The notes: generated by a model not told the origin, from the letters alone. DNA of 64,000 nt from an uncultured Rhodospirillaceae bacterium (GCA_903901915.1 CAIUSV010000065.1:432-64431); one strand, 5' to 3'; positions 17,852-32,866 are shown, counted from the stretch's first letter. Numbers and translations are program-made.

Positions 17852-19279
17852 ATGGGCAATGTTGTTCATATTCTCGATGGCGCTATAGCGCTGTACCAGC
17901 GTCTCTACATGGGGACGTTGACCTGGACGGCTCGCTACAAGATCAAGGGCCACAAAGGCTATGTGACCAAAACGACGGGCAAGCGCGATTTGGACGAGGC
18001 CAAGGAAGTCGCCCTCGAAAAGTTCTACGAACTGACTGCGGATCACCGTCGCGGCATTGCCATTCACAGCCGCACCTTCCAGCGGTCGGTCGATGCGTAC
18101 CTTGAAGACCTCGCTGCCGCTGTAGCGTCAGGGAAAAAGACGGCTCGGACACAACGCGATAACAAGGCCGTCATCGACCGCTATCTGCTGCCGTATTTCA
18201 AGAGCAAGGCCATCGACGCGATCAAGCAGGAGCACATTGAAGCGTATAAGATTTGGCGATTGAACTACTGGATCAGCGGGCCTGGTTCCAATGAGGAAAC
18301 GCGGGAATATATGCGTGCCGGCAGGCTCATCAAGGCCAAAATGCCGAAGAAGGCGCAGACGCAGCGCTCGGGTGAAATCCTCATTCTCAAGGCCATCTTC
18401 AAGGCGGCATTGAAGCGCAAATGGATTACGCGCGATCAAATCCCCGACATTGAGGAAGACCCCCGCGAGGATAATCGGCGGCCAGCATTTTCGCCCTCGG
18501 AATGGAATCGCGTGGAAGCGGCCATGGGGCCATATATAGAGAGTGCCAATGGCCCCGTGGTGCAGCATGACCGCAAGATGCTCTGTGGCTATATGCGGTT
18601 TTTGTTCGAAACTGGCCTGCGCCCAGGGAAAGAGCACCAGAAACTCAGGTGGGAAGATTGCGAACTAGTCGAGACCAAGGCTGAGTTTGGCACTCGCAAG
18701 ATCGCCCATATCCATGTCCGTGATGACACGAAGACAGGCAAACGGCTCGCGGTAAGCAGCGAGGACACATGGAGCGCCCTGCAATACATCAAGTCATTTT
18801 CGCCTTGGACCAAGCCCCGCGATCCTGTGTTCGCCGACAGAGCGACCGGCAAACCGATCAAGAGCTTCATCCATGGAATGGAAGCGCTGCTCAAGACGGT
18901 CGATTTGGTGACAAATCGGCATGGGGAAAAGTTCGCGCCATACAGTCTGCGCCATACCTATGCGACCGACCGCCTGATCAACGGCAGAGTGGATGTGTGG
19001 CTGTTGGCGAAGAACATGGGAACGAGCGTGGAGATGATCCGCAAGCACTACGGCCAGGACGAGCCGCAGCAGCGCTCGGAGGAACTGACCCACGATAAAC
19101 AGCAGCTTGATATGAAGACATGGATCGCCATGCTGACCGAGAACCCCGCGATGGCCGAAGCACTATTGCGGAAAGAGCCAGAAGGCCCGACCTTTGACCC
19201 TGATGCGCCCAAGGCCGAACCCGATCCCAATGTGCCGCGCAAGCCGAAGAGGTTCCGATTGAGCGATATGTTGGACTGA
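17852..19279 (+). CDS. Tyrosine integrase of the element
   Basis: Catalytic motifs FETGLRPGKE, DDTKTG, YSLRHTYAT, NMGTSVEMIRKHYG, plus an N-terminal arm/core-binding region. Confidence 0.93.
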   Translation: MGNVVHILDGAIALYQRLYMGTLTWTARYKIKGHKGYVTKTTGKRDLDEAKEVALEKFYELTADHRRGIAIHSRTFQRSVDAYLEDLAAAVASGKKTARTQRDNKAVIDRYLLPYFKSKAIDAIKQEHIEAYKIWRLNYWISGPGSNEETREYMRAGRLIKAKMPKKAQTQRSGEILILKAIFKAALKRKWITRDQIPDIEEDPREDNRRPAFSPSEWNRVEAAMGPYIESANGPVVQHDRKMLCGYMRFLFETGLRPGKEHQKLRWEDCELVETKAEFGTRKIAHIHVRDDTKTGKRLAVSSEDTWSALQYIKSFSPWTKPRDPVFADRATGKPIKSFIHGMEALLKTVDLVTNRHGEKFAPYSLRHTYATDRLINGRVDVWLLAKNMGTSVEMIRKHYGQDEPQQRSEELTHDKQQLDMKTWIAMLTENPAMAEALLRKEPEGPTFDPDAPKAEPDPNVPRKPKRFRLSDMLD

Positions 19280-19347
19280 TTTTGGTAAGGTGCTAACAAC
19301 TGGGTTGGGCCGGACAAAGAGCTGACGATAACAAGCGGAGGATAGTC

Positions 19348-19749
19348 ATGAAATATAATAAGCTTTGGACTAACAACAAAAAACAGATTATCCCCATGTT
19401 TGCGGACAAACGCATAGGGGATTTTCTGGAATCGGTGGATCGCTTTCTCCCTGGTTTTGTTGATGGTCTGCTAAAGACGTCGGCTGAGAGTCGCAGAGAA
19501 GGTTCCGTTGAAAGTGTAAAAAGATCAAACCTCGCCCTTTCTTGTGCATTTCTGACGGGGTGGCTTAGGACGGCTGATAAAATCAAAGTCCGTAAACTGC
19601 GCGATGGCAGAATTGATGACATGCCACTTCCGAGACTCTATTTTCTTTGGCATGAGCACAACAATGGAGCGCCTCTGGATTTCAATAAATTATGGGACGA
19701 ATCTTCGCTGACCGCTGATATTGCTGAAGCTATCGAACTAGAGGCGTGA
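19348..19749 (+). CDS. Hypothetical protein
   Basis: 133-aa ORF with GGAGG RBS; no recognised motif. Confidence 0.6.
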   Translation: MKYNKLWTNNKKQIIPMFADKRIGDFLESVDRFLPGFVDGLLKTSAESRREGSVESVKRSNLALSCAFLTGWLRTADKIKVRKLRDGRIDDMPLPRLYFLWHEHNNGAPLDFNKLWDESSLTADIAEAIELEA

Positions 19750-19904
19750 TCTTGTCGGGGGTGTGGCGATAGTCTGGAAGGAAATCTCCCCGATCTTTCG
19801 TCACGCTTTCGCGTTGCCACACGCCGTACACGCTTCAAAGCTTGGGCCCGTGTAGTGCGGCACTCATGAATCCAGCCCCGCTTGTATGGGGCTGGAAAAG
19901 CTTC

Positions 19905-20342
19905 TTACGCGAGCTTTTTGCCGAAACGACCTTTTGCGGCGGCCAACTGCTTGTCCAGTTCGCCAGCGACCACGGCCTCACGCAGCAGCGTCAAGGTCGG
20001 GACCAATTCGGCCACCGCGCCGACCTCGATGGCCGTCTTCTTGGGCTTCAATTCCAGCACCTTGTTGCCGTAGCGCACTTCCAGCATGAACGCGCCATTG
20101 GTTTCCTGCCAGTACCAGGGACGAAAGCGGATCAGCTTCTCCTGTAGGGTTTTCTCACCACCAGCGCCTTTCACCCAATGCCGACGACGAAGCTGAAAGC
20201 TTTCGCCGGTCTGCATCGCTTCCGCAGCAGCGATCTGCTGGTTGATGGCCTCGACCATCCGATTGCGCAACTGCCCTTCAGGCGTGCTGTTTGCCGTCCT
20301 GCGGGTGTTTTCCATCAGCTTCAGCTTGTCCAACGCGCTCAT
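19905..20342 (-). CDS. Conserved island protein (recalled as DUF6641-like)
   Basis: FRPWYW...LEVRYGNKVLEL...KTAIEVG...AVVAGELD pattern; GGAGG RBS. The family name is from memory and needs an HMM check. Confidence 0.7.
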   Translation of the reverse strand: MSALDKLKLMENTRRTANSTPEGQLRNRMVEAINQQIAAAEAMQTGESFQLRRRHWVKGAGGEKTLQEKLIRFRPWYWQETNGAFMLEVRYGNKVLELKPKKTAIEVGAVAELVPTLTLLREAVVAGELDKQLAAAKGRFGKKLA

Positions 20343-20361
20343 CTGCCAATCCTCCGAATGG

Positions 20362-20376
20362 GAACGTACTGTGAAC
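20362..20376 (-). promoter_or_regulatory. Alphaproteobacterial LexA box GTTC-N7-GTTC
   Basis: Plus strand GAAC-GTACTGT-GAAC, next to a minus-strand TATAAA -10, 20 nt upstream of the 20342 start. Confidence 0.75.
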
Positions 20377-20437
20377 AGTTTATAGCTAATCGAAAACCAT
20401 TCTCAACCGAAAGGTGGTCACGAATTGGAATGTCCAC

Positions 20438-20458
20438 GAACATACTTCAAGTATGTTC
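20438..20458. repeat. Palindromic site 1: GAACATAC-TTCAA-GTATGTTC
   Basis: Seen directly; exact reverse complement of site 3. Confidence 0.93.
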
Positions 20459-20526
20459 GTTGCGAGGCGATGCGGTTGAGGGCACAATTCCCCCGTGAAT
20501 GTCTGTGACAATTGGGGGGAAACTGA

Positions 20527-22155
20527 ATGTCCAATGCAGCAGCCGCGAGCTTTGATGAAGCGCTGACGCGGGTTGACACTGAGGTAAAAGCGTTTGAAGA
20601 GAAGGCTTTCGCCGAGCAGGTTTCCCAGGCCGAGAAAAACAGTGCGCTTTATGCGGCGCTGGACAAAGCCTACGCCTTTCACATGAAGTGGGGGGAGCAC
20701 CACCAGTATGCGAAGTTCCTTGCAGACAGGAAGGTGGTAGACGTTCCGCGCGGCTCAAAATCAAGCCAATTCACACCGACCATCAAGGCGTTCTTTGATC
20801 CGTCTTGGGATCAGTTCGACCCGGCAGGTGATGAGAAAAAGAAGAAAGAAAAGGCTCGTCGCCAGAAAACCATCAGCACCTATAGCGGCGTACTGGACTA
20901 CGCCGCGCATGAACGCATCAACGATGTTGTCTCTTTCCTAGCGACGGGTGGCGGCATTGAGGCTGTGCGGATCAAGTGGAAGAAAAAGCGGAGCGAACTC
21001 CCCGAAGAAATCGAGAAACGGCAGAAAGCCGCTGACGTAAAGAACCAACGCTTGGCTTTGGGCCTTGCTGGACTTCAGAAGGGAATGCAAACATCCCTTC
21101 CGTCAGATCCCCATCGCAAAGAAAGCCCCCAGTTAGCCGCGATATATTATGACGAGACTGGTGTTGCCCACTTCCTTGGACTTCCCGACCAAGATGACAG
21201 CGCCAAAGCTCTCTTGGAAAGGTTCTTGCTGTCGAACGCTGGCCCCAATAATCTCACAAAATTGTTGTCGCTTCTGAAAGCCGGTGTGGTCGCTAATGCC
21301 AAAGACGCGAATGTGCTGATCAAGAACGACAAATCTGGTTGCGAGATTCACGCATCAGCGAATAGCAGCGATACATGCGTCGTCTCCGCCAAGTTGCCAC
21401 ATCAAGACTTCCTGCCCGAGGGAACCCATTGGTTCGGCAGCAAGGCCATTCGCGGCTTGAAAAAACTGTCGCCCCTTGGAAAGTACGGCGCTCAATTCAT
21501 AATCACCGGCCCAGCCAAAATTGCTGGCATTGATGCCTCGTGGGAAATCCAGCTCACGGACTATCGGGCGGGCGTGGCGGCGATTGAGGATTGGGATTGG
21601 AACAAAGTCATCCCGGATACGCCCGGTTGCGTCCACACGGAAAATGATGACGTGATGACTATTACCTATGTTTCGACCATCGAGGACATGGCACGCATCA
21701 AGCCGATAGCTGCTTGGGACGGCGAAGTGAATGTTGACGGCGCATTTGCTGATTGGCTGCAAGCCGCTTTGGGCATCAGCAACGATGATGCTAACCAACG
21801 CTTGTTCAAAGCTATCCGCGATGAAGGCCGTCCGACAACCGCGTTTAGGATCACCGACAGCGCCTGGACAATCACTGACGAGCAAGGTGACGTTGTAACC
21901 TATGCGTTCCAAGCCCCTATAAGCAGCTCGAAATTCACCATCGAAATGGCCGTTGGCTCGAAGGACATTCTGACCGCCATTGATGCGGTCAAAGCACTTG
22001 TGGATGGGGGAACAGTGAGCATCTCACTCGTCGACAAGCTGATGCGCGTTCAGTGCAAGAAGGGCAGCGTGTTGGCTGAGGTCTTCATCCCGTCAATCGG
22101 CACTGATGGGCGGCATCAGGCTTATACCGAATTCGACCAGCCATTGACCGCATGA
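20527..22155 (+). CDS. Large hypothetical protein (542 aa)
   Basis: Long ORF in a lower-GC region with GGGGG RBS; no family recognised. Confidence 0.8.
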   Translation: MSNAAAASFDEALTRVDTEVKAFEEKAFAEQVSQAEKNSALYAALDKAYAFHMKWGEHHQYAKFLADRKVVDVPRGSKSSQFTPTIKAFFDPSWDQFDPAGDEKKKKEKARRQKTISTYSGVLDYAAHERINDVVSFLATGGGIEAVRIKWKKKRSELPEEIEKRQKAADVKNQRLALGLAGLQKGMQTSLPSDPHRKESPQLAAIYYDETGVAHFLGLPDQDDSAKALLERFLLSNAGPNNLTKLLSLLKAGVVANAKDANVLIKNDKSGCEIHASANSSDTCVVSAKLPHQDFLPEGTHWFGSKAIRGLKKLSPLGKYGAQFIITGPAKIAGIDASWEIQLTDYRAGVAAIEDWDWNKVIPDTPGCVHTENDDVMTITYVSTIEDMARIKPIAAWDGEVNVDGAFADWLQAALGISNDDANQRLFKAIRDEGRPTTAFRITDSAWTITDEQGDVVTYAFQAPISSSKFTIEMAVGSKDILTAIDAVKALVDGGTVSISLVDKLMRVQCKKGSVLAEVFIPSIGTDGRHQAYTEFDQPLTA

Positions 22156-22275
22156 AGGACGCAACATTACTGAGCTTGTTGACGGCATTGCTATGATATA
22201 CCCTTAGAAAAATTGTCAAATTTCGCCTGAACTACTTGGGCGTAATTACAGCAAAAGTGTTGGGGGAGATGCTGC

Positions 22276-23061
22276 ATGAGTTCACCTGACACCATTGGCA
22301 AACTGGGCAAGGCACATTCAGCCCTCAATGGCGGCAGTGCTAGCGCAGCTAAAACAAAATCGCTAGGTGGCGTCGTCGGAAAGATGGCGGGTCAGTCTTC
22401 CCAACTTTCCGGGACAAGTTCGGGGGCTGCCAAGGCTTCCTCCACCAGCATCGCTCTCGGCAAGATCAGCATCCCCTACACCCACCTTACTGGGGTCGGC
22501 TCCGGAACTATCAACGTGACCTCAGCCGGGATCGCGAACGGGACCAAGCTGATTTCATCCATATGTTCCGGAAAAGGGCTGAGCCTCGGCCTCGGCCTGG
22601 GTCTCGGCGCTTGGGGGCCTGCATTGATTGCGGGAACCGTTTGCGTTGCTGGGTATGGGGCCTATCGGATGTATGCCGCCAATCCAAAGGGCAAACCCCG
22701 CTCTCGGAGCAAGAGTGGTCAAGAGACCGCCACATTAGCCTCCCAGGTCGCGTCAATGGCTGATGCCGTTTTCGCCGCAGGATACGGAGCATTTAGAAAG
22801 CTGGTATCCTCTCCTGATGATGAGGCGGCCCTGGCTGCCGAGCTTGCCGCCGAAATTGCAGCCGCCGGGAAGCTAATCGCCGAGGCCAACGAAGCTGAGA
22901 AGCGTGCATTAGCCGCCGGTGCCAATGCCAAGCAGGCCATCAAGTTGGCAGCCGCCGCCAAGCGGAAGGCAAAAGCTGCATTGGACCTCCAGCACTCCAC
23001 AGAATCCAAGCTGGCGGCTACTCGGGCGCGAAAGCGGAAGGAAGCTGCCGCCAACGTGTAG
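22276..23061 (+). CDS. LG-repeat magnetosome-type membrane protein (Mms6/Mms5/MamG-like motif) with Ala/Lys-rich tail
   Basis: SGKGLSLGLGLGLGAWGPALIAG...YGAYRMY matches the Mms6/MamG/MamD signature GKGLGLGLGLGLGAWGP. Confidence 0.8.
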   Translation: MSSPDTIGKLGKAHSALNGGSASAAKTKSLGGVVGKMAGQSSQLSGTSSGAAKASSTSIALGKISIPYTHLTGVGSGTINVTSAGIANGTKLISSICSGKGLSLGLGLGLGAWGPALIAGTVCVAGYGAYRMYAANPKGKPRSRSKSGQETATLASQVASMADAVFAAGYGAFRKLVSSPDDEAALAAELAAEIAAAGKLIAEANEAEKRALAAGANAKQAIKLAAAAKRKAKAALDLQHSTESKLAATRARKRKEAAANV

Positions 23062-23321
23062 TCCATTTTCATGAAGCATTATTTCCAAAAATGCGAAAAC
23101 TCACAGCCACATCGCCCCCGCACATAGTTGCGAGCGCCTCTTACTATTAGAGCAAACCCGAACCCACAATAAATTTCTCTGGACAGATTTCGCCTCTGCT
23201 TGCGAGAATGGGGGCGTATTATGATATATGTGCATACCAGCCTATATCTCTCCGAAGGGGCTCGGGGTATCTTCAGCAGAACGGTTTGTCGCTCTGCGTC
23301 ATTGTTTAGGGAGCTGTTAGC

Positions 23322-24338
23322 ATGCTTGACCAAATGATCATGGCCAAGGTCGAGGGAACCACCCAGGCAGCTCTCCTGTCGTCGATGACCGGAAATTCCT
23401 ACACGGTCGGCCAAGTTACTGCTACTGGAAATGGAATGGGACACTGGTTGTTCCTGAACCCCGCTGGCGCTACCGCTGGAAAAGGGGCCGTCGCCCTCAA
23501 ACTGGAAGGTGCCCGTCAGGTCGCGCAGTTGTCGGGGATGGTGGGCAAGACCGTTACCATCGGAAAAGCCCCCCTCGTTGCAGATGGTGTGAGCAAATGG
23601 CTTGTGCTGTGCCCCAAAGCCGGTATCGCAGCAAAGGGCGCTGCCGTTGCTGCGGGCGCTGCCGGTGCTGGTGGTCTGACTGCTGCCGCCACCCAGGGCG
23701 GCGGGAACGGCATGATTATGATGAAGCTCGAAGGCGCAAGACAGGCCGGGCAGGTCCAGATGATGACCGGCAAGACTTTCATGGTGGCAAAGACCACTGC
23801 CGCCGGGAATGGAGCCGCCAATTGGCTATTCCTTCAGCCCGTTGGTGAAACCGCTGCTACCATGAAGGATCTGGTGGTCCTCAAGGTTCAACATGGAGCT
23901 GGGCAGATGCCATGGCTGGTCGGCAAGACCTTCGCTATTGGCGAATCTCCGATGATGGCCGGTACGACGAGCAAGTTCCTGGTTCTCAATCCTGTGACTG
24001 GTGTCGCAGCCAAGGGCGCGGCCGGAACCGCAATCGCCGCCAAGGGAGCCATGCAGACTGTGGCATTGCAGACCGCCGGTAAAACTGCTGTGGCGGGTTC
24101 GGTTGCCAAGGGTGCCGCTGCTGGCGCCGCCACCAAGGGTGCCGCCGCTGTCGGCACTCTATGGACTGGTACCGGCATGAGCTTGGGCCTTGGTTTGGGA
24201 CTCGGCGCTGCTGGTCCTGTCATCCTGGGTGGCGTCATCGCCGCAGCCGGTTACGGCATTTACCGCTACCGCAAGGCCCGGACCACCTCGGCAGCATCCG
24301 AGGTTGATGACGCGATCTCGGACGCAGTGACGGCTTAG
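23322..24338 (+). CDS. mamD: Magnetosome protein MamD (Mms7)-like
   Basis: Four roughly 40-aa internal repeats (KLEGARQ...GKT(F/V).(V/I)...WL(F/V)L.P), GTLWTGTGMSLGLGLGLGAAGP, a TM helix and the acidic tail SEVDDAISDAVTA. Confidence 0.88.
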   Translation: MLDQMIMAKVEGTTQAALLSSMTGNSYTVGQVTATGNGMGHWLFLNPAGATAGKGAVALKLEGARQVAQLSGMVGKTVTIGKAPLVADGVSKWLVLCPKAGIAAKGAAVAAGAAGAGGLTAAATQGGGNGMIMMKLEGARQAGQVQMMTGKTFMVAKTTAAGNGAANWLFLQPVGETAATMKDLVVLKVQHGAGQMPWLVGKTFAIGESPMMAGTTSKFLVLNPVTGVAAKGAAGTAIAAKGAMQTVALQTAGKTAVAGSVAKGAAAGAATKGAAAVGTLWTGTGMSLGLGLGLGAAGPVILGGVIAAAGYGIYRYRKARTTSAASEVDDAISDAVTA

Positions 24339-24416
24339 GCAAGACGATATGCTTGCCCCTTACGTGTTCACACTTCGTGCGGTGTAAGCTCAGCATGAAC
24401 AGGAGGACGTTGGTCT

Positions 24417-25220
24417 GTGACTGATGTCCCTAAAAAAGGTCGAAAGCGGGCAAGCTCCTGTTCCAATGCATCAGGTGAAATACCCTGCGCTGCTGCGTGT
24501 TCAAGCATTGCCGTGCCCCCATCGGAGCGTAAAGACAACCACGAAGAGCGTGGGGAACGAGGCACATTCATTGAAGAATGCCTCGCCCTCATGCCCAAGG
24601 TTGAAGCTGGTCTGAGTGCATACCGTTCATCAGCAATTGCCCATCTCGAAAGCCCACCAAGTAGCATCATTCGCTTCATGGCCAATGGTGCAACTGCCCA
24701 TACTCTGACGGATTTGGCATGCTTTGCGACGGCGTTTGAAGCGGCCCTACTTTATGGGGAAACGGAGGGATGGACGGATAGTCTGACCGAGGTTTCCGAG
24801 AAGAGCTTCGCCATGCTGTCACTTCATCTGGAGGTGGCTAAAGCCGGGGCGGACTGGAACTCAGATTGGGACATTGATTTAGTTGCAGACCTGATGATCG
24901 CCGCCAGCTCGCTGGACCAAATTGTGGATAAAGTGGCGGATAACTCACCACACCAATCGGGCATGAGCGTTGGCGAAGAAAGCTCCTCGGCCCATCTACA
25001 CCCCAGCCCACAGATGTCCCAGGTTCACTATCACAAGCAAGCCACCACCCTTTGGGATGGTCGGGAAAGTCTATTTCTCAAGCTTTGGAGCGTTTTGTCA
25101 CGAACAACGGCGACATGGTCGAGTGTGAAAACGAGTAAGCCTACCAGCACGGTCAAACGCCCTAAAAAAGCTAGGCGCTCGCGCGGCGAAGACGATCCGA
25201 TCCTGGAAGCTCTTCGCTAA
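24417..25220 (+). CDS. Hpt/CheA-P1-like protein lacking the phosphoacceptor His segment
   Basis: FIEECLALMPKVEAGL...IIRFMANGATAHTLTDLACFATAFE aligns by eye to CheA P1 (F.EE..ELL..LE..L...IFRAVHSIKGGAGAFGLDDLVAFAHVFE). Confidence 0.55.
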   Translation: MTDVPKKGRKRASSCSNASGEIPCAAACSSIAVPPSERKDNHEERGERGTFIEECLALMPKVEAGLSAYRSSAIAHLESPPSSIIRFMANGATAHTLTDLACFATAFEAALLYGETEGWTDSLTEVSEKSFAMLSLHLEVAKAGADWNSDWDIDLVADLMIAASSLDQIVDKVADNSPHQSGMSVGEESSSAHLHPSPQMSQVHYHKQATTLWDGRESLFLKLWSVLSRTTATWSSVKTSKPTSTVKRPKKARRSRGEDDPILEALR

Positions 25221-25242
25221 ATCAGAGGGTTGGGAGGATATT

Positions 25243-25431
25243 ATGATCACAAGCACCGTGACTGGATCGAAAATCGCTGCCGCAAGTGCTCCAGGGTTGG
25301 GCAAAGCCGCCATATTGATCTTGAGCGCCAGCATGGGTGTCGGTGTCTTGATCGGCTTGTCACTGGCGACCGCTGCGGGCGGTTTCTATGTCTGCCGCAA
25401 GTTGTCCGGTGCGGCTGAACCTGTCACATAA
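25243..25431 (+). CDS. Small single-pass membrane protein (62 aa)
   Basis: GGGAGG RBS; hydrophobic segment AAILILSASMGVGVLIGLSLATAAGGFYV followed by RK. Confidence 0.65.
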   Translation: MITSTVTGSKIAAASAPGLGKAAILILSASMGVGVLIGLSLATAAGGFYVCRKLSGAAEPVT

Positions 25432-25455
25432 TGTCACACTCATTCCACATCTAGG

Positions 25456-25794
25456 ATGCAGTGTCCCATGGATGAGGACGAATTGGCGTGGCTTGCATCA
25501 AAAATAGTGATTGCATGGTCACGCCGAAACGAGAATTCCAGCGATAAGCTCTTCGATTTGAATGAGGACATTACGCAGTCGATGCGTGCCATTCTCGGCC
25601 AAAACCCTGCGAAGCTCGCCGCAGTTCGTGGCAGCCGTACACTCAGTGAAATCGGATGCCGGAAATCACTGCCCTCCCTCGTTCATCTGTTCTTTTGCGA
25701 TTCCTGCGGAAAGATTTTCCGCAACATGGCATCAGAACTTCACCACAAGCGGTACTGTTCCCCAAGAGATGAGCAGCACCGTCAATTAGGATAA
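25456..25794 (+). CDS. Divergent, C-terminally truncated Ros/MucR-like zinc-finger protein
   Basis: LASKIVIAWSRRN...KLFDLNEDI resembles the Ros N-terminus (LTADIVAAYVSN...LPGLISDV); RKS...CDSCGKIF...HHKRYC resembles its zinc finger. Confidence 0.55.
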   Translation: MQCPMDEDELAWLASKIVIAWSRRNENSSDKLFDLNEDITQSMRAILGQNPAKLAAVRGSRTLSEIGCRKSLPSLVHLFFCDSCGKIFRNMASELHHKRYCSPRDEQHRQLG

Positions 25795-25821
25795 GAGGAT
25801 TTTCAGCGTCCTGTCCCTTGA

Positions 25822-27327
25822 TCAATGCTTTGTGGCGGTCTGGTCGATCCGCGTTATGATTTCTACCCACCGCATCCAGTCGTCGAGATTGTTTTCAAAC
25901 TCGACCAAAAGGGCAACGGAGCGACTACCATCACGACGGATTTCCTGAAATTTCTTCACCCCCAGAACCACATCCATATTCGGGCAGATAATCTTGGTGA
26001 CGGCCTTGACCTCGGCTCCATGAGTCTCGAATTTGACGCCGTGCATGGAAAGATTGATGGCAGCCGTTTCCCGCTTCTCACCATCAGCACTGATCCATTG
26101 AATTTCCATGGCTCCGGAAGGCACTGCAACACGCAATGAAAACCGTCGCTCGACCTTGACAGCTTCGCTTTCCGCGATAAGAAGCTTCCGCCGCAATTTT
26201 TCCGCGTCATCAAGGGCACCTTTGACCTTGGCGTCTATGTACTGGGAGGCAAGGTCCACCGGAACGGCTGGTTCGGCCTTGGCAGCCGCTCGTCGCCGGT
26301 AGACGATCAAAGCTCCAATAACACCGCCCACCAACAAAAGAACAATCTCCCATATGGAGGACTGACTGGTTTGCGTATCCGCAGGAGCTACGGGCTGGGG
26401 CGCAACCGGCTCAGCCATCCTTGTTTCGATGGGGGGAGAAAGCGGCTTTGGGGCGGGTTGCTCCCTCGGCTGAACCTTCGCAGCGATCTCGGGAATTGTG
26501 GTCAGGGCTATGGCGGCTCGATGCTCGTGGTCGTCCGGTAGGGCTTCCTTGACGATAGCACTGGAATGCTGCTGCAAGGCCGTCATGGCCTTCTGCAATT
26601 GCTCAACGGGATTTTCCTGAGCAGCCACCCGCATGGGCAGATATTGGGCACTCGCTGCCTTGGCCCAGGTCTTCAGATAATAGGAGGTTCCAGACAAATC
26701 CCAGATGATCAGCCGATCCCCGATCAGTTTGGCGATGCCCGGCATCTGGCCTTCGATCAGATCGATATTGCGGGCGTGGTACAAGGCACCGAGCTTTTCA
26801 AACCGCTTGCGCTTTGAGATCCCGGCATCCTTCATGTGTTGATACTGACGGTTCAGATCGTCATAGCGGGAGTCCGCTTGAACCTCCTTGCTGAGATAGC
26901 CCAGCTTGGCATCCCAAATCTCAGGCTCACCATCGGATATGATCACGGCCAGTTTCGTCGAAGGCTTCGCGTAATTCAGCAGATAGCGAAAGGGCATCTC
27001 CAAATCTGTCGCTTTGCCAACCGTTTCAATGCCGTCGATGGCCCGGTTCACGGCATTGATGTCGGTGGCGGTATCACGGTCGATGGCGAGGTGACGGTAC
27101 AGGGCTTCGTCGAACCCAACGATTTCGATCTTATACGGATTGTCGAAGGTCTTCAGGAAGGTAAGCAGCCAGGCCTTGGAGGCAAGTTTTGGATCATGCT
27201 TTCCAACCGATCCCGATTGATCGAACAAGATGATAATGTCCGGCTGTTCTTGGGCTAAAACTGGGCGAACAGGGCCAAGAACAACACTGGCAATCAGGGC
27301 GGCAGCCAGAATGATGCGAGCAAGCAT
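25822..27327 (-). CDS. Signal peptide-vWA-TM-PilZ protein
   Basis: MIDAS motif FDQSGSV and ISDGEP; TM WEIVLLLVGGVIGALIVY; PilZ motifs RRFSLR and NLSMHG. Confidence 0.8.
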   Translation of the reverse strand: MLARIILAAALIASVVLGPVRPVLAQEQPDIIILFDQSGSVGKHDPKLASKAWLLTFLKTFDNPYKIEIVGFDEALYRHLAIDRDTATDINAVNRAIDGIETVGKATDLEMPFRYLLNYAKPSTKLAVIISDGEPEIWDAKLGYLSKEVQADSRYDDLNRQYQHMKDAGISKRKRFEKLGALYHARNIDLIEGQMPGIAKLIGDRLIIWDLSGTSYYLKTWAKAASAQYLPMRVAAQENPVEQLQKAMTALQQHSSAIVKEALPDDHEHRAAIALTTIPEIAAKVQPREQPAPKPLSPPIETRMAEPVAPQPVAPADTQTSQSSIWEIVLLLVGGVIGALIVYRRRAAAKAEPAVPVDLASQYIDAKVKGALDDAEKLRRKLLIAESEAVKVERRFSLRVAVPSGAMEIQWISADGEKRETAAINLSMHGVKFETHGAEVKAVTKIICPNMDVVLGVKKFQEIRRDGSRSVALLVEFENNLDDWMRWVEIITRIDQTATKH

Positions 27328-27340
27328 GTCCGCCTCCCGT

Positions 27341-28192
27341 CTATTCTAGGTTGGACAGAATGGTCGAACGCTTCTCCGCAAGGAAGTCCTTGATCTCGGT
27401 CTCGGCCATGAGCTTCCGCTCCGAGGCGAAGGTCGAGAAATATTCATGGATGCTGTCGAATTCGGCTGTAACTTTCTCGATCAGCTGACGCCGCAAGTCC
27501 GTGACCTCGGTCTGATAGCTGCTCTCAAACCGTTCCTGAAGCCGCGATTTCTCGGACTCCGTCCACGCCATGATCTTGGACAGTGCCAATTCCTTCTGTG
27601 CGGCGACGGCCTCTTCCATCTCGGCTACTTTTTCCCGGCGGCGCTCGTCGATATCCCGATCCAACTCGGCCATCTCAGCCTCAATCTCACGCTGCCGAGC
27701 CAAGAGAGTGGTGATGCTCTCGTCGAGAGCGTCCTTTGTTCGGGTGAGGTCAGTGACATCAGAGGACAATTCAACCACATGCGTTCTCTTGCGGTCGGCC
27801 TCCTCCTGAAGGTCAGAGACTAGCTCCACCAACTTCTGCTCAACCTCGCGAAGCTCTCTCACACGGGTTTCAGCCGCAACCTTTGTCGTGATTGCAGCAT
27901 TGATTTCTGCTTGCTCAGCCGCCAGCTTCTCGGCTTTACGGGCATCCACTCCCTGCTCAAATTCACGGATAGAGGCGAGAAGCGTATCTTCTCTTGCGGC
28001 AAGCGCATTCACCCGAAGCTGAAGCTCGGCCTTCTGCCGGGTAAGCTTCCCAGCGTCATCGATACCCTGAAAGTTTATTGAACGGCTATCTTTGGGGACT
28101 GGTTTTGTCTTGTTGCGATCAGCCAGTTTGGACACGCCAACCATTACGGCCAAAAATCCACATGCTGACAGAGCGATAAGAAGTATCGGCAT
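27341..28192 (-). CDS. Membrane-anchored long coiled-coil protein
   Basis: N-terminal hydrophobic anchor MPILLIALSACGFLAVMVGV followed by E/K/R/A-rich heptads; co-oriented with the vWA gene. Confidence 0.8.
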   Translation of the reverse strand: MPILLIALSACGFLAVMVGVSKLADRNKTKPVPKDSRSINFQGIDDAGKLTRQKAELQLRVNALAAREDTLLASIREFEQGVDARKAEKLAAEQAEINAAITTKVAAETRVRELREVEQKLVELVSDLQEEADRKRTHVVELSSDVTDLTRTKDALDESITTLLARQREIEAEMAELDRDIDERRREKVAEMEEAVAAQKELALSKIMAWTESEKSRLQERFESSYQTEVTDLRRQLIEKVTAEFDSIHEYFSTFASERKLMAETEIKDFLAEKRSTILSNLE

Positions 28193-28387
28193 AATCCCCC
28201 CCCCAAATGGGCAACGGCCATAATCGCTTAGACTAGCACATCCGGTATTACCGCCCATGCCAAAAGTCGAGGACGCTGAACATGAACGATCAGGGAATTT
28301 TGCGAATGCTTGTCATGTTGAGCATCAGAAAAAGCCCTATCACGACTAGGTCCATTTCTATGCAGACTAATCTCGGCAGTTCCCCAC

Positions 28388-28408
28388 GAACATACAGCAT
28401 GTATGTTC
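28388..28408. repeat. Palindromic site 2: GAACATAC-AGCAT-GTATGTTC
   Basis: Seen directly, immediately after the stop codon at 28411. Confidence 0.93.
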
Positions 28409-28410
28409 AG

Positions 28411-28704
28411 CTACCTCGCCGCTGATAGCCGCTCAATTTCGTTCCCAACCCGACCACGCAGCGCGACGAGTCTAGTGCAATTGTCCCGTTCCATCTCGGT
28501 CGTCGCCACGGCGGCATATTTGGCCGTGATGGAAGTGAGCCGCTGCGACAGCCGCATCAGCACCAGCAGCGACGGTGGCCGCTGCCGTGCCTTGGCACAG
28601 GACATATAGCTGCGAGATTTCCCAAGCCAAAACCGCGAAAACTCGTACTGGCTCTCGACCATCCACATATCGCGCAATTCCCCATAGATGACTTCCAGCA
28701 GCAT
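28411..28704 (-). CDS. Conserved small island protein (recalled as DUF6626-like)
   Basis: IYGEL...VESQYEFSRFWLGKSRSYMS; GGGAGG RBS. The family name is from memory. Confidence 0.65.
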   Translation of the reverse strand: MLLEVIYGELRDMWMVESQYEFSRFWLGKSRSYMSCAKARQRPPSLLVLMRLSQRLTSITAKYAAVATTEMERDNCTRLVALRGRVGNEIERLSAAR

Positions 28705-29728
28705 GGCCGTTCCTCCCAAGCGTTTCCGACCAGCTATTTATCCCTGACGCTAAATACGCTTGCGGAGCAGCGCCACGCTGGACGCTGCCGCACGGAGGAG
28801 AAAATGCCATGAACAGACGGATCTATTTGCCGAGGGGGTATTGCGAGATTGGCTTTGCCAACGAGATCGTGACCATTGATCAAGCGGTCAGGCTGGCCAT
28901 ACAGTCAAGCCTGACGAAAGCAGCGCAGAAAGCCAAAGGAAATTGTTGAAGGAAATTTTACGGAAATTTTTAATTTTGGCCTGAAACCGAGCATAAATAC
29001 ATATGGCCGGAGACGGCATATCATAACGTCCATAAAACGAAGCAGGCGGCGCGATACAAATAGAGTGCCCGAAACGACAGTAGGGCAACTTCGAGACGTA
29101 AGATGGAAATCTTTAAACCCGCGCAAAAAGGATCAGTCAGCAGATTAGCACGCTGCATGACTGAAACTGCGGCCAAGGCGCGGGAGTGCGATAAAGCACA
29201 CGGATTGAGTCCCCGTAAAGGTCTCGGCGCTGATACCAGTGTTAGGTGTCGCCGTAGTTGCTTGCAATCGCATAACCGCACTGAGCGTAAAGCTCAGGAG
29301 AGACGCTTCCACAGGTAAGGAATTCGGGTGCCGCCTTAACTGAAGCGAAATAACACGGCGACGGAAAAAACCGCCCCATCTCTTCCCCCACTGTCAGGCG
29401 CTTCTTCAAGAAGTTAATCGGTAAGGACACATCTCCCTGTGTCTTCCCGTAGTCAGTCAGTGGGGGGAGAAATGTGACTCGGGAAAAAGACCCTTTGAAA
29501 AAAACAAACTGATAAACTCATTGAGTTCAATTCAAGCGATATAGCCATTCCAGCTACAAAGACACTCCAGACAGAAAGCAATCGGACTAACCAACTGATT
29601 GATAAGTTGAAATTTCAGGGATTTACGTCGAATTCACTGCTGCTTTCACCCGGAGAAATCAGACAGATGGACTTACGTCATCCAAGCTATAAATATTCAC
29701 ATAAAGGAAACCTGACAGGAGATGACAC

Positions 29729-29944
29729 ATGCGAGCTATAGAATTCATGGAGGCCGACACACCAGCCAAGACCAATGCTGACAATCTGAAGCGACAGGCC
29801 GATGCGAAGGCCGAACAGGCCAAAAAGCTCAAGCAAGCCGCTTCCGTTCAGAAGAAGCGCGAGCAAGTCAACAGCACGAGGGCCTCGTTGATGACGAAGC
29901 AGGGCGAGTTGAGCAAGCTCACGGCTTCCAGCGCCAACGCCTGA
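29729..29944 (+). CDS. Small basic coiled-coil protein (71 aa)
   Basis: AGGAG RBS; A/K/Q-rich helix. Confidence 0.65.
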   Translation: MRAIEFMEADTPAKTNADNLKRQADAKAEQAKKLKQAASVQKKREQVNSTRASLMTKQGELSKLTASSANA

Positions 29945-30085
29945 GCAAAACATAATAAAAACACAGATTTCTTATGTTTGCCGTTATCCGCTTGATTATC
30001 AACGCAGATAATCGCCGTAGCGATGTCGGCGTTTTCACTCATATAATGTTTTACCTAGTGCGATAACATTTCATTAGGTAAAGCG

Positions 30086-30655
30086 ATGAAACAGGCCAAG
30101 GTACTCAGCGAAGCGGAACTGAAGCGCGTGCTGTCCGTGATCGCCAATCAACGCCATGCAGCACGCAACCGCATAGCGGTCATGCTCAGTTTCTACGGGG
30201 GAATGCGCGTCGGAGAGATCGCCCACTTGAAGGTCGGTGACGTTCTTGATGGTGACGGTCGAGTGCGCGACCAGATCACGCTGTTGGCCAGCTATACCAA
30301 GACCGCCGAAGCAAGAGCGGTGTTCGTCAGCGGTAAGCTGCGGCGTGAGCTTGAGCGGTATGTGCTGTCGGACAACCCAATTGGGGATCGCGCCTCACCG
30401 TTCCTCGTGACGCAAAAGGCCACCGCGTTCTCGGCCAACACGCTGTGCCAGCTATTCGGACAGATTTATGCGCTGGCCGGAATTGATGGTGCGAGCAGCC
30501 ACAGTGGCAGACGCTGGTTTATCACGAATTTGGCCCATAGCGGCGTGTCCGCGAAGGTGATCATGACGCTGGCTGGCCACAAACACATGAGCACGACGCA
30601 ACGCTATATCGAGGTCAACGACCAGATGATGAAAGCTGCGGTCGAAAATCTTTAG
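30086..30655 (+). CDS. Minimal tyrosine recombinase (catalytic domain only)
   Basis: 189 aa with GGMRVGEI (R), YTKT (K), SHSGRRWF (HxxR), LAGHKHMSTTQRY (H, Y). Confidence 0.93.
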   Translation: MKQAKVLSEAELKRVLSVIANQRHAARNRIAVMLSFYGGMRVGEIAHLKVGDVLDGDGRVRDQITLLASYTKTAEARAVFVSGKLRRELERYVLSDNPIGDRASPFLVTQKATAFSANTLCQLFGQIYALAGIDGASSHSGRRWFITNLAHSGVSAKVIMTLAGHKHMSTTQRYIEVNDQMMKAAVENL

Positions 30656-30671
30656 CCGCTATGGGCTGCGC

Positions 30672-30692
30672 GAACATACTTGAAGTATGTTC
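30672..30692. repeat. Palindromic site 3: GAACATAC-TTGAA-GTATGTTC
   Basis: Seen directly, 16 nt after the recombinase stop. Confidence 0.93.
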
Positions 30693-30698
30693 ATTCGA

Positions 30699-31505
30699 TC
30701 ACGTCGGTACGAGATATTTTGTAGGCCACGTCCAGTGCGTTTTCGCAAACTCTCTCCGTGACAAGTGGCCTTTGTCATTCAAAGTTAAGCCAGGAAATTT
30801 GTTCGCAAGCCATTTCTTGGCGTGGACCATCTTTTCAATTCGATCCTTATTGCTCTTGAACAACGTCGAGTTATTTGCCCCCGACAAATCCCGTATCAGG
30901 ATGTTCTCGCACTTAAATACGCCCATGCCATTGCGAATAGCCTCAAGCGCAAACGCTCCGTCCTCCATGACCGTGCATGAACAATCAAAATACAGCTTTG
31001 TCTTCGGCCTCCGGAAGAACCACAGACCCGTCGATAAATCCCACAGCTTTGTAAACGACAGGCTGTTGTTGTAAGTATCTGGAAATTCTGACCATAGGAA
31101 ATTATAATTGTCTCCGGCATTCCTGCCGTTCATTGGCATTACAATATATATGTTTTCGTCAGTTATTTTATCCAGCTGGCAAAATATCGTTCTGCCATTT
31201 TGGCGGTCGCTCAGAATGCAGTCATTGTCCGCAAAAAACGACCACTCGTCACTTCCATCATAAAAGTCATTGAGGAGCAAATTGCGAGCGCTTGATGCGC
31301 CTATTGCATTCGGGACATTGATATAGCGAATGCGCGGGTCATCAATATACCAATCAGGCTTATACTCTTGAGCCACAATTACGATTTCAGTTATTCCGAC
31401 ATCGAGCAGCCACTCAACCTGACGACGATGGTACTCGACGCGCTTATTTTGCAGGGCCAGGTCGCTTCCCATCCAAGATATGATTCGTGCAATCATCGCT
31501 CTCAC
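30699..31505 (-). CDS. GT-A fold (family 2-like) glycosyltransferase
   Basis: EIVIVAQ...GASSARNLLL...FFADNDC (DxD) pattern; AT-rich coding sequence. Confidence 0.75.
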   Translation of the reverse strand: MRAMIARIISWMGSDLALQNKRVEYHRRQVEWLLDVGITEIVIVAQEYKPDWYIDDPRIRYINVPNAIGASSARNLLLNDFYDGSDEWSFFADNDCILSDRQNGRTIFCQLDKITDENIYIVMPMNGRNAGDNYNFLWSEFPDTYNNSLSFTKLWDLSTGLWFFRRPKTKLYFDCSCTVMEDGAFALEAIRNGMGVFKCENILIRDLSGANNSTLFKSNKDRIEKMVHAKKWLANKFPGLTLNDKGHLSRREFAKTHWTWPTKYLVPT

Positions 31506-31513
31506 CGCAATTG

Positions 31514-32866
31514 TCAGGCTAGCTTCAGCTTTGCCAAGTCTGCTTCCGGGGTCGGGCTGTTGAAGGCGGCAACCAGTCGATCAACCATATCGCCCTTCTG
31601 CTCAACGAGTTGTGCCGATGCGCGATAAACGTAGCGCAGAAACATTTCCATGCTGACATTGGTAAAGTACAGGTAGCCGGTGGGCGATAGTCGTCCCTTT
31701 TCATCCAGGGTCACAAAATCAAACATTGCCCGCACCCAATCCAGCACATCACCCTGCTTGAACAAACGGATGTTCACCGTTGACGTTCCGAGAAACCCAA
31801 ACATTCCTTTGAGCCTTTCCTCAACGCACGGGCCGCAATCGGAATTGGTTGGCGTGCAGTGAACTCGACAGTCCAACCCACAAGACGGCTCAAACCAAGC
31901 CGCATGAAGCACCTTCCGCTGAATAATGTTTGGCGGTCCCTCTCCGTAATAATTGCCCTTCGTCCCAACTGCAAAGCAGGGGTTTGACGAGTCGCAGCTG
32001 ATCGTGAACTCGTCATCATCCAGGAGTTTCCGCAAAGCCCGCTGTAGCAAGGTGAATGTCGCAACGCGCTTTATGCTGGTGACGCCAAGAATATGTATCC
32101 AGCGATGTTTGCTTTTTTTTCCCAGCAAGCCGTCATTACGCATCCGTGAGATTACACGCAAGAGCGTCTTCGTGTTTCGTGCGGCATATCCACCAAATGA
32201 CCAGCCATCAAATGCCTGATCGCCAAGCTTGTCGCGATTACAATATCTCTTCACTTCGTCGTACCAACGCATGACGCCTGTTGGGCCATCGGCCTTAAGC
32301 CCTTGTACGACATTTAGAAGGCGCATCTTCTCCGGTCTGCGGTTCCTCACCTGCCAATCAAAGTTGATTTTTGACCAGTGAAGCGCATCGTCAAATGTGC
32401 GGATTGCCTTGGCTTTTTTGCTGCTGACCGAACCGCTCGGAACATCCATCGCAATCCCGATGTCCGAAATCTCCTCCTGCCATCTCAGGATTTTTTCCCG
32501 CTTGTCGTAGTATTCCCTTGGGGACCAAAGCCCCTTGTAAACCTGAAACCCGCCGCTATCGCTCATCAACGTCGTATCAGGGCGACGGTCCCATATGCCC
32601 GGCGTTTTCTGTTTTGATTTTTCGATATTCAGTTCTGCGCCGCCTGCGCTGTATAGGGCTGCATCATAGACATATGCGCCGTCTTGACTGAGAAAGTTGA
32701 AGTCTCCGAAGCCGCTAAAGTTGTGCTTCAGAAGCACGTTTTGAACGTCATCCTTACTGGAATATTGCATATAACTGCTGTGAATTGCGGGCATGACCGT
32801 CGCATTGTCCTTGCGATAATGCCTGTAGTCAGGAGGATTGTCCCGGTCAGCGTCGAAAATATCCAT
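31514..32866 (-). CDS. tRNA-guanine transglycosylase/DpdA-like protein
   Basis: Ordered TGT motifs DSGGFQ, MDVP, VVQG, DGWSFGG, HILG, SCDSSNP. ORF is open to 33118, but the start is more likely 32866. Confidence 0.85.
   Translation of the reverse strand: MDIFDADRDNPPDYRHYRKDNATVMPAIHSSYMQYSSKDDVQNVLLKHNFSGFGDFNFLSQDGAYVYDAALYSAGGAELNIEKSKQKTPGIWDRRPDTTLMSDSGGFQVYKGLWSPREYYDKREKILRWQEEISDIGIAMDVPSGSVSSKKAKAIRTFDDALHWSKINFDWQVRNRRPEKMRLLNVVQGLKADGPTGVMRWYDEVKRYCNRDKLGDQAFDGWSFGGYAARNTKTLLRVISRMRNDGLLGKKSKHRWIHILGVTSIKRVATFTLLQRALRKLLDDDEFTISCDSSNPCFAVGTKGNYYGEGPPNIIQRKVLHAAWFEPSCGLDCRVHCTPTNSDCGPCVEERLKGMFGFLGTSTVNIRLFKQGDVLDWVRAMFDFVTLDEKGRLSPTGYLYFTNVSMEMFLRYVYRASAQLVEQKGDMVDRLVAAFNSPTPEADLAKLKLA

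Follow-up and report, generated by a model that had tools for sequence, protein, structure and literature searches.

The 64,000-nucleotide stretch of DNA analyzed here (the window) lies on the 65-kb contig C65 of the genome of an uncultured Rhodospirillaceae bacterium (GCA_903901915.1). The genome assembly totals 4.10 Mb, is split into 93 contigs and has a completeness of 99.9%. From about 17.7 to 33.5 kb of the window the GC content is 0.49-0.58, compared with 0.63-0.71 in the flanks. This low-GC segment is a 15.6-kb integrative element inserted at a tRNA-Gln(CUG) gene. Its variable slot, flanked by a backbone gene for a 542-aa protein and by a DUF6626 gene, holds an accessory magnetosome cassette of about 6 kb. 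The cassette consists of a gene for an LG-repeat membrane protein, a MamD-like gene (MamD2), three small open reading frames (ORFs) and then, on the opposite strand, a McaA-like and a McaB-like gene (Table 1). Most probably the host is magnetotactic and the cassette is one that is exchanged horizontally by tRNA-Gln islands, other integrase islands and temperate phages. This conclusion draws on the anatomy and integration of the element, the homologies of its genes, the distribution of the cassette over several vehicles, its low synonymous divergence and the purifying selection on its genes.

Table 1. Features of the tRNA-Gln element and its magnetosome cassette (window coordinates)
Feature	Position	Strand	Basis and remarks
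tRNA-Gln(CUG), integration target	17624-17697	+	ARAGORN; Rfam tRNA 63.7 bits
attL	17648-17706	+	Native tRNA 5' part GCGGAC, 41-nt identical core, element-type 3' part CAACCA
Tyrosine integrase	17747-19279	+	phrog_1, 87 bits; Phage_integrase (Pfam), 26 bits, slightly under the cut-off of 27.1
DUF6641 backbone gene (phrog_31551)	19905-20342	-	Conserved in AMB-1, G067, G060, G064 and G061 elements
542-aa backbone gene	20527-22155	+	57-58% identical homologues at the same position in AMB-1 and G061 elements; dN/dS 0.14-0.18
Accessory magnetosome cassette, ~6 kb	22265-28270		blastn boundaries identical in SO-1, SS-4, LM-5, XM-1 and G063
LG-repeat membrane protein, 261 aa	22276-23061	+	GLSLGLGLGLG and a transmembrane segment; Ala/Lys-rich C-terminal tail
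MamD-like (MamD2), 338 aa	23322-24338	+	NCBIfam MamD NF040916, 408.4 bits
Cassette gene, 267 aa	24417-25220	+	91-98% identical in all cassette copies
62-aa ORF	25243-25431	+	Other copies and the AMB-1 islet have a gene call of this size at the corresponding position
112-aa ORF	25456-25794	+	AMB-1 islet counterpart 90 aa, 35% identical
McaA-like	25822-27327	-	Pfam VWA_2 28 bits; 84.5% identical to AMB-1 amb0908 (PMC9512821)
McaB-like	27341-28258	-	N-terminal membrane anchor and coiled coil; 83% identical to AMB-1 amb0907
DUF6626 backbone gene (phrog_33694)	28411-28719	-	81-91% identical in AMB-1, G067 and G061 elements
Small tyrosine recombinase, catalytic domain only, 189 aa	30086-30655	+	Pfam Phage_integrase 86.9 bits; dN/dS 0.09-0.14
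Second cargo block	30699-33118	-	TGT/DpdA-like transglycosylase (31514-33118) and GT-A-like protein (30699-31505)
attR	33252-33310	+	Element-type 5' part GCAAAC, 41-nt core, native tRNA 3' part CAGCCA

The integration target is the sole tRNA gene of the window (ARAGORN and Rfam), and a whole-genome ARAGORN search showed that it is present in a single copy. Rfam gave nothing besides this tRNA over 17-34 kb. The element, 17648-33310, is bounded by direct repeats of 59 nt that are identical at 56 positions and are spaced 15604 nt from start to start. In an alignment of the attachment (att) sites, the tRNA-Gln genes of the relatives all read GCGGAC-core-CAGCCA. attL joins the native 5' part to the element 3' part and attR is the reciprocal, so that the repeats reflect attB x attP recombination and not random decay. 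The att comparison also shows that the 3' end of the tRNA gene is supplied by the element, A73 replacing G73. G73 is found in all relatives examined and in the displaced native copy at attR (33298-33301, corresponding to 17694-17697). The same 41-nt core bounds a 16.4-kb island in AMB-1 and an 18.3-kb island in G067. AMB-1, XM-1 and SS-4 are G062, G066 and G074 in our numbering of genomes, and the other G numbers denote further relatives.

The left flank (window 9-15 kb) is syntenic beside tRNA-Gln in AMB-1, XM-1, G067 and G063; in the draft genome of SS-4 the homologous pieces are split over separate contigs. In XM-1 a homologue of window 33329-33405 follows the tRNA-Gln gene within about 25 nt. 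Because the tRNA gene there directly precedes the homologue of the right flank, the site is empty in XM-1. The element in the window is a genuine site-specific insertion at a tRNA gene. It has the marks of a genomic island, namely a tyrosine integrase beside a tRNA, repeats that duplicate the 3' part of the tRNA and deviant composition, and its junctions are documented both by the unoccupied site in XM-1 and by their attB x attP hybrid structure.

The integrase is full length. Its relatives at the tRNA-Gln site in G063, G060, G064, AMB-1 and G067 have 67-96% amino acid identity, the G063 homologue being 95.6% identical with a ratio of nonsynonymous to synonymous divergence (dN/dS) of 0.15. Against four of the five homologues compared dN/dS was 0.12-0.20; the fifth, the 29% identical integrase of G061, gave 0.46. 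The DUF6641, 542-aa, DUF6626 and small recombinase genes gave values of 0.09-0.30. The integrase and the backbone genes are under purifying selection. Since homologues align from about residue 27-44, the true start of the integrase is probably the ATG near 17852.

The cassette is defined by DNA homology. In the five genomes listed in Table 1 it is 94-95% identical overall to the window, and the sequences outside the two boundaries are unrelated. The identity is mosaic, ranging from 0.75 to 1.00 in 250-bp windows, a pattern to be expected from recombination between variants. None of the seven ORFs is broken in the window, and the cassette ORFs are intact in six of seven aligned copies. The SO-1 copy has an IS1595-family transposase insertion that splits the 112-aa ORF (L014 7480-8274), and the LM-5 and XM-1 copies have a 435-bp insertion at the position of window 25806. 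LM-1-type genomes have a rearranged cassette, in which an inverted mcaB/mcaA-like block separates the LG gene from the mamD-like gene; one of these genomes (GCA_042466075.1) has a gene for a large serine recombinase about 5 kb from it. A promoter and terminator scan of the cassette gave nothing above the shuffled control.

MamD2 is a full-length match to the MamD family, covering positions 1-316 of the 318 in NF040916, whose cut-off is 100 bits. Within it are four repeats, each some 50 aa long, with 25-48% identity to the first repeat. These are followed by GMSLGLGLGLG and a single C-terminal hydrophobic helix; the translation reads GMSLGLGLGLGAAGPVILGGVIAAAGYGIY. This is the MamD architecture (NF040916; Pfam PF28196): a repeat domain at the N-terminus, then an LG repeat and one transmembrane helix at the C-terminus. 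The gene lies outside the mamGFDC operon, on the tRNA-Gln element, and the mamGFDC copy of the host is on contig C11. As its product is also only about 38% identical to the host's own MamD, MamD2 is a MamD-family paralogue and not the canonical MamD. In the magnetotaxis islet (MIS) of AMB-1 the mamD-like gene is amb0400, to whose product MamD2 is 76% identical. The LG-repeat protein matches only the LG and transmembrane part of the MamD, Mms6 and MamG models, under their cut-offs, and is 54% identical to the product of the LG gene beside the mamD-like gene in the MIS. Neither the 267-aa protein nor the 112-aa ORF has a match in Pfam or NCBIfam, and an idea that the latter is of the Ros/MucR type finds no support in these databases.

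The initial annotation, made from the window by itself, had described a MamD-like gene with four repeats, a second LG-repeat gene, near-perfect att repeats and a complete-looking integrase, all of which the data above bear out. Its list of cargo was right in the MamD-like and LG genes; the chain-organization pair McaA-like/McaB-like had not been recognized. The McaB-like gene is directly upstream of the McaA-like gene on the same strand, the pairing seen in mca loci, and no second copy of the pair is present in the host genome. Its start is probably at 28192, giving a protein of 283 aa; orthologues in relatives are called as 283 or 267 aa. The protein is 43% identical to MIS McaB.

The McaA-like protein consists of a signal or transmembrane helix, a periplasmic VWA domain with a DxSxS MIDAS motif (metal ion-dependent adhesion site), a second transmembrane helix and a predicted cytoplasmic PilZ-like domain. 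An AlphaFold2 (AF2) model has the two helices at residues 2-17 and 326-347. The MIDAS residues D36, S38 and S40 are invariant in 19 homologues; S427 is also invariant, and R395 and R399 are present in at least 90% of these sequences. The protein is 51% identical to MIS McaA over residues 25-286 and 30% over the C-terminal domain, residues 359-501, which align to about residues 529-671 of MIS McaA, the "530" region. Signal or transmembrane helix, VWA domain with intact MIDAS, transmembrane helix and C-terminal "530" region, the architecture of McaA, are thus all present.

A fold search with the whole McaA-like protein returned VWA domains only, and the C-terminal domain was therefore modeled separately. 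The model of residues 385-501 has a predicted local distance difference test score (pLDDT) of 87.5 and forms a six-stranded barrel with a helix. Nearly all of its top-ranking PDB matches are PilZ domains (MrkH, YcgR, BcsA, Alg44), with weak E-values of 2e-3 to 5e-2; the match to Alg44 has a TM-score of 0.61-0.67 and a root-mean-square deviation of 2.9 Å. The PilZ motifs RxxxR and (D/N)xSxxG are conserved across the McaA-like clade as RRFSLR and NLSMHG. MIS McaA is without them and has EFQFLLF and DVALQG instead in the motif alignment. The Pfam PilZ model gives no match to the McaA-like protein even at E<=5, so that the assignment is one of fold and motifs only. These features suggest that the McaA-like protein carries a PilZ-like domain (window 25822-26175), a new finding, and that this predicted domain may couple the McaA-like/McaB-like pair to cyclic di-GMP (c-di-GMP). 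PilZ or c-di-GMP is not mentioned in either of the two mca papers, and no link between McaA and c-di-GMP was found in the literature searched.

The host has its own set of magnetosome genes. Its canonical MamD is on contig C11 (C11:1264-2211; 392 bits), within a mamGFDC-like region, and MamK is on contig C77 (544 bits). A tblastx comparison of AMB-1 960-1097 kb, which is the magnetosome island with the region upstream, to the whole host genome found homologues of mamAB, mms6 and mamXY on contigs C11, C21, C77, C74, C76, C15, C44 and C50. On contig C65 the only matches to this region are with 974.8-977.3 kb (amb0907 and amb0908) and, weakly, with mamD. Judged by these genes the host is magnetotactic, and it belongs to the same GTDB genus as AMB-1, XM-1 and SO-1. 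In the finished relatives the tRNA-Gln site is far from the main island, as seen from the positions of tRNA-Gln and mamD: 4.16 and 1.01 Mb in AMB-1, 1.57 and 2.32 Mb in XM-1, and 3.44 and 0.50 Mb in G067. The canonical MamD of the host is unusually divergent, with 73-78% amino acid identity to all other Magnetospirillum-group MamDs. That of LM-5 (genus g24) is nearly identical to the MamD of AMB-1 (genus g1). From these two patterns the history of the main island disagrees with the genome taxonomy.

The cassette is found in several unrelated vehicles. In SO-1 and LM-5 it sits in a prophage, between the large terminase gene (GpA_ATPase, GpA_nuclease) and the portal gene (Phage_portal_2), and genes for capsid, decoration protein and a primase/helicase module adjoin it. 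G063 has the same terminase-portal arrangement by DNA homology to LM-5, and the prophage flanks of the two are 96% identical over 13.5 kb although the hosts are of different genera. In SS-4 (contig C72) only the terminase side of this slot is present. Related prophages, with terminases 95-96% identical, hold other cargo in the slot: a 6.5-kb TpsB/TpsA two-partner secretion (TPS) cassette in G035 (L088 9000-15700), and a 4-kb insert with a methyltransferase/restriction gene and HigBA on SS-4 contig C54. The TPS cassette of G035 is 86.6% identical over 2.5 kb to the TPS genes of the AMB-1 tRNA-Gln element (L042 6200-13800; AMB-1 4.148-4.156 Mb). Both TPS and magnetosome cassettes thus occur in the island and the prophage families, which indicates a shared cargo pool with at least two types of cargo. 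In IMG/VR the SO-1 contig and one more of the cassette contigs are classed as viral; the INPHARED phage genomes queried with the McaA-like protein gave no match.

Integrase islands form the other vehicles. In XM-1 the cassette is in a 17-kb low-GC island (1,614.5-1,631.6 kb) that has its own integrase, 31% identical to that of the window, and a homologue of the small recombinase. This island interrupts an AmmeMemoRadiSam-type radical-SAM gene at the region of its CxxxCxxC motif, and each of the two junctions has a GCCAGAA; in the host genome this gene is intact (contig C79, ~24660). The G061 island has the backbone of the window element together with the cassette, and its integrase, only 29% identical, lies beside the elongation factor EF-G gene. 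Two metagenome contigs (L049, L050) have the same backbone and cassette. The tRNA-Gln elements of AMB-1, G067, G063, G060 and G064 carry cargo other than the magnetosome cassette. By this distribution the spreading unit is the 6-kb cassette, using several vehicles, and not the 15.6-kb element as such. In AMB-1 only the mcaAB-like half is left, about 20 kb upstream of the island, and the mamD-like half is absent there; some mcaAB-like copies may be resident rather than mobile. The MIS of AMB-1 abuts a lambda-like tail gene. In the literature searched there is no description of the cassette in prophage or tRNA-island slots, or of magnetosome genes in the head-gene slot of a prophage.

Cassette-bearing genomes fall in three GTDB genera: g1 (SO-1, SS-4, XM-1, G063 and G061), g24 (LM-5 and BB-1) and g12 (two metagenome-assembled genomes, MAGs). 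Nucleotide identity to the host genome is 92-97% for the cassette, 73-77% for canonical mamGFDC and 75-87% for core genes. Synonymous divergence (dS) was estimated by the Nei-Gojobori method (NG86) on single genes in identical pairs of genomes, of which the pair with LM-5 crosses genera, and three genes at window 9.1-13.3 kb served as the core. dS was 0.016-0.35 in the cassette, 0.68-0.84 in canonical mamD and 0.40-0.68 in the core genes. Within the cassette it was 0.083-0.117 for MamD2 (with dN of 0-0.004), 0.016-0.107 for the 267-aa gene, 0.11-0.25 for mcaA-like, 0.095-0.21 for mcaB-like, 0.13-0.22 for the LG gene and 0.13-0.35 for the 112-aa ORF. As these values are far below those of the core genes and canonical mamD, they indicate that the cassette has been exchanged horizontally and recently, also between genera. 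Purifying selection would keep the proteins alike, but the synonymous sites are similar too, which needs a recent common ancestry of the cassette in addition.

The MamD tree (IQ-TREE) agrees with this. MamD2 forms a clade of 14 rows (support 100/97) with branch lengths of at most 0.03 across genera. Its sister (100/99) is formed by the MamDs of other alphaproteobacterial and unclassified magnetotactic bacteria, of Azospirillaceae type, in which MamD and the McaA-like protein are encoded within the magnetosome gene cluster, beside feoAB, mamXZ, mamF or mamOMKE. The canonical Magnetospirillum MamDs form a separate clade (100/100) that is not sister to MamD2. By this topology the cassette is foreign to the magnetosome island of its host. 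MamD2 was found only in genomes that have a canonical MamD, one 89%-complete MAG excepted; the genomes are related, so this co-occurrence is not a statistical test. The MamD2 of G061 (L016, CACVCF010000268.1) is 100% identical to that of the window. This assembly is labeled "Terasakiella sp. PR1" (contigs MCP1_) but belongs to the same GTDB genus as AMB-1; the label looks wrong, and the copy is therefore not to be counted as a transfer into Terasakiella.

These results also settle what the initial annotation had said of the genome at large. It had found no mamAB core genes in the window, as is the case on contig C65, and had proposed to look for mamAB and a second mamD elsewhere and to build a MamD tree. 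mamAB homologues do lie on other contigs and a second MamD on C11, and the tree is not vertical. Its alternative, that the genes had been repurposed in a non-magnetotactic host, is rejected because the genome has a canonical MamD, MamK and homologues of the island. It had further proposed that crystal-shaping genes travel as cargo on the 15.6-kb element. The part that stands is that an integrative element carries accessory magnetosome genes; what spreads is the smaller cassette, and it has several vehicles.

Several points weigh against the conclusion that a horizontally exchanged cassette rides on an integrative element. Three of the 59 att positions differ, as expected for attB x attP hybrids but compatible also with ageing of the site. 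No excisionase, relaxase or packaging gene was recognized in the element by family and profile scans or by PADLOC; no recombination directionality factor was found in it, and the small ORFs of 28.7-30.1 kb contain no recognizable excisionase. The dS values are Nei-Gojobori single-gene estimates and do not amount to a genome-wide calibration. The mcaAB-like genes are near the island in AMB-1 and possibly in SS-4. Deletion of the mcaAB-like pair from AMB-1 had no visible phenotype under laboratory conditions (PMC9512821).

Some of these points favor other explanations. Wan et al. 2022 described the mca-like genes as having 85-100% protein identity, as close to the island with conserved synteny, and as conserved by purifying selection (PMC9512821). 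In such a reading the cassette would be an old, vertically inherited neighbor of the island, similar in all genomes because of purifying selection only, and the AMB-1 pair, a feoB gene about 7 kb from the cassette genes in SS-4, and the low dN/dS of the cassette fit it. It is nevertheless very improbable. Cassette dS is 3-8 times below that of core genes and canonical mamD in the same pairs, cross-genus ones included; the GC content is 0.52-0.58 in a genome of 0.65; the homology stops sharply at 22265 and 28270, with flanks that are a tRNA-Gln island in one genome, a radical-SAM-gene island in another and a prophage slot in others; and many magnetotactic genomes of the same genus (G060, G064, G067 and G075) are without the cassette. 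Least credible of all is an artefact, in which assembly errors or cross-contamination between magnetotactic cultures would have brought the pieces together. The host genome is a draft in 93 contigs, the same laboratories produced several of the assemblies that contain the cassette, and the organism label of one is doubtful. But a 65-kb contig encloses the element, its flanks are syntenic and its att sites hybrid, the copies differ by 3-8% and so are not the same DNA, and the finished chromosomes of XM-1 and AMB-1 hold their copies in defined contexts.

The element could also be a fixed fossil that delivered the cassette once and whose present copy is unable to excise or transfer. The three att mismatches agree with this, as do the missing excisionase, relaxase, conjugation and capsid genes and the variable DNA right of attR, where a DUF4143 gene fragment points to an island-rich, decaying neighborhood. 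Yet the att mismatches have exactly the hybrid attL/attR pattern and not that of random decay, and the integrase is full length, 94-96% identical to its G063 and G064 homologues and, with the exception of G061, under constraint. Sister elements with other cargo occupy the same site in five genomes while XM-1 is empty, a sign of ongoing turnover, and the backbone recurs with the cassette in the two metagenome contigs. The fossil is unlikely, and the copy in the window may still be capable of excision and transfer at present. That the magnetosome-like genes are neutral hitch-hikers or decaying pseudogenes is hardly to be expected, although the host has the full canonical gene set and the AMB-1 deletion was silent. 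Apart from the IS1595 insertion in SO-1 the aligned copies are intact, MamD2 keeps 99-100% protein identity at a dS of 0.08-0.12, conservation extends to the MIDAS and PilZ motifs, and the cassette goes with canonical MamD in all but the incomplete MAG. In AMB-1 the homologous MIS region affects the chain pattern (iR2) and the crystal shape (iR3) (PMC9512821). The conservation of MamD2, the intact ORFs and the co-occurrence with canonical MamD argue for a retained function. From the silent deletion, the contribution of the cassette may be subtle or conditional.

The most probable course is as follows. A tyrosine integrase inserted the 15.6-kb element into the host's only tRNA-Gln(CUG) gene, in its 3' half, the variable cargo slot holds the self-contained cassette, and the cassette is swapped among magnetotactic Rhodospirillaceae by the tRNA-Gln islands, other integrase islands and a temperate phage with a terminase-portal slot for alternative cargo. 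In a cell that already makes magnetosomes it would supply a second set of tuning factors, and its proteins would be expected to localize to magnetosomes and to affect the phenotype. The locus had been annotated with MamD as simply a crystal shaper; MamD is now described as a MamE-cleaved inhibitor of membrane growth. In AMB-1 it faces the lumen, is anchored at its C-terminus and restrains growth of the membrane until cleaved by MamE; magnetosome localization and MamE processing are documented for AMB-1 MamD only (PMC8833152). By analogy, MamD2 would be a lumen-facing paralogue that acts as a MamE-cleaved brake on membrane and crystal growth, with the LG-repeat protein as a putative partner.

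McaA is a curvature-localized VWA landmark protein, and McaB is a marker of magnetosomes that contain crystals. The two proteins bind one another and both bind MamK, the McaA-McaB contact being made through the "530 region" of McaA, and control of chain spacing through McaB and MamK is described for the McaAB of the MIS only (PMC9512821). The McaA-like/McaB-like pair might likewise work as a VWA landmark and a coiled-coil magnetosome protein. We infer that the cassette adds a second, possibly c-di-GMP-responsive, control of crystal or membrane size and of chain organization.

The closest known system is the MIS of AMB-1, for which phage-mediated acquisition has been suggested as a hypothesis (PMC2818848, PMC9512821). 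Both loci hold accessory magnetosome genes at low GC, lie outside the main island and have phage genes adjacent, horizontal acquisition has already been suspected for the MIS, and the LG protein, the mamD-like gene, the 62-aa ORF, a small ORF, mcaA and mcaB are homologous (54, 76, -, 35, 51/30 and 43% identity). The MIS is larger, however, with 22-28 kb; it is rich in insertion sequences (IS), its mamK-, E-, L-, J-, I-, F- and Q-like genes are all missing here, and no att sites or integrase have been defined for it. Its mcaBA genes are divergent from the mamD-like gene whereas they are convergent here, and its McaA, of 776 aa, is without the RxxxR and NxSxxG motifs kept here. By gene content the cassette corresponds to the iR2-iR3 sub-block of the MIS and not to the whole. 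The AMB-1 pair amb0908/amb0907 is closer: it is in the same clade, with the protein identities given in Table 1, the same domain order and the same mcaB-to-mcaA operon. These have been described as chromosomal genes near the island, whereas here and in SO-1, LM-5, XM-1, G063 and G061 the pair is joined to a mamD-like gene in a cassette on mobile elements.

Fukuda and colleagues are said to have found in 2006 that the 98-kb main island of AMB-1 is excisable, with an integrase and flanking repeats. It resembles the present element in that magnetosome genes lie on an integrase-associated, repeat-bounded region. It differs in having about 100 kb, 1.1-kb repeats and the essential mamAB core, compared with 15.6 kb, a tRNA site, 59-nt att repeats and accessory genes only. 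A variable cargo slot in a conserved backbone is familiar from phage morons, lysogenic-conversion cassettes and tRNA islands with P4-type integrases. Here too alternative cargo (TPS genes resembling contact-dependent inhibition systems, restriction-modification with toxin-antitoxin genes, or the magnetosome cassette) is found at the same slot, the integrase is beside a tRNA and the 3' end of the tRNA is duplicated. The cargo is different, consisting of organelle-tuning proteins and not of toxins, defense or metabolic genes.

The gene families themselves, the MamD-like of the AMB-1 islet, McaA-like and McaB-like, are already known. What is new is their compact cassette on defined mobile elements, temperate phage among them, the clear signs of its recent exchange between genera and the PilZ-like domain predicted in McaA-like. 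The movement of magnetosome genes between lineages, a question of long standing, has been deduced from phylogeny and island features, and discrete vehicles have rarely been pinned down. For accessory genes they are now supplied by the tRNA-Gln element with its reconstructable attB and attP, a second integrase island and a prophage cargo slot. The published view of the mca-like genes as conserved island neighbors kept by selection alone is revised accordingly.

A further step can be put forward tentatively, as possible but short of probable. Phages and islands may convert the recipient's organelle in a lysogenic manner with a portable magnetosome tuning kit that passes across species and genera, and the AMB-1 islet may be a decayed phage-borne cassette, which would give it a possible origin. 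The same tentative reading holds that the kit, made up of the MamD paralogue, the LG protein and the McaA-like/McaB-like pair with a PilZ domain sensing c-di-GMP, would alter crystal or membrane size and chain architecture. If true, accessory magnetosome traits belong to the mobile gene pool, and if the PilZ-like domain does bind c-di-GMP, organelle positioning would be tied to second-messenger signaling.

Besides the cassette the element has its backbone genes, a second cargo block and a 133-aa ORF. The 542-aa protein has no family match in Pfam, NCBIfam, phrog or PADLOC, and PADLOC gave no match on the backbone and cargo ORFs. About 1.3 kb without convincing ORFs separates the DUF6626 gene from the small recombinase gene, which is of a multi-copy type widespread in the relatives. 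The second cargo block has weak matches to TIGR00449 and Glycos_transf_2, and a 60% identical homologue of its TGT-like gene is at the same place in the AMB-1 element. The AMB-1 tRNA-Gln element keeps the integrase, DUF6641, 542-aa, DUF6626, small recombinase and TGT-like genes, and has in its cargo slot a TpsB/TpsA cassette and a FliG_C-domain protein.

A 108-aa fragment at 33558-33884, immediately past attR on the right, matches only the C-terminal end of DUF4143. The 8.7 kb right of the element have almost no homologue in five relatives; as this DNA is poorly conserved, the element abuts another variable region.

The element contains four copies of a palindrome, CGAACATAC-N5-GTATGTT(C), at 20437-20459, 28387-28409, 30671-30693 and 33004-33026, compared with 0.01 copies expected in the window, and the 4.1-Mb genome has no others. 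The AMB-1 tRNA-Gln element has four copies at the equivalent backbone positions and the G061 element has two. As a recombination site of the cassette the palindrome was rejected, being present in the AMB-1 element that lacks the cassette and missing where the cassette sits in prophages or in XM-1. It has the look of an operator, or a site for recombination, that belongs to the island backbone.

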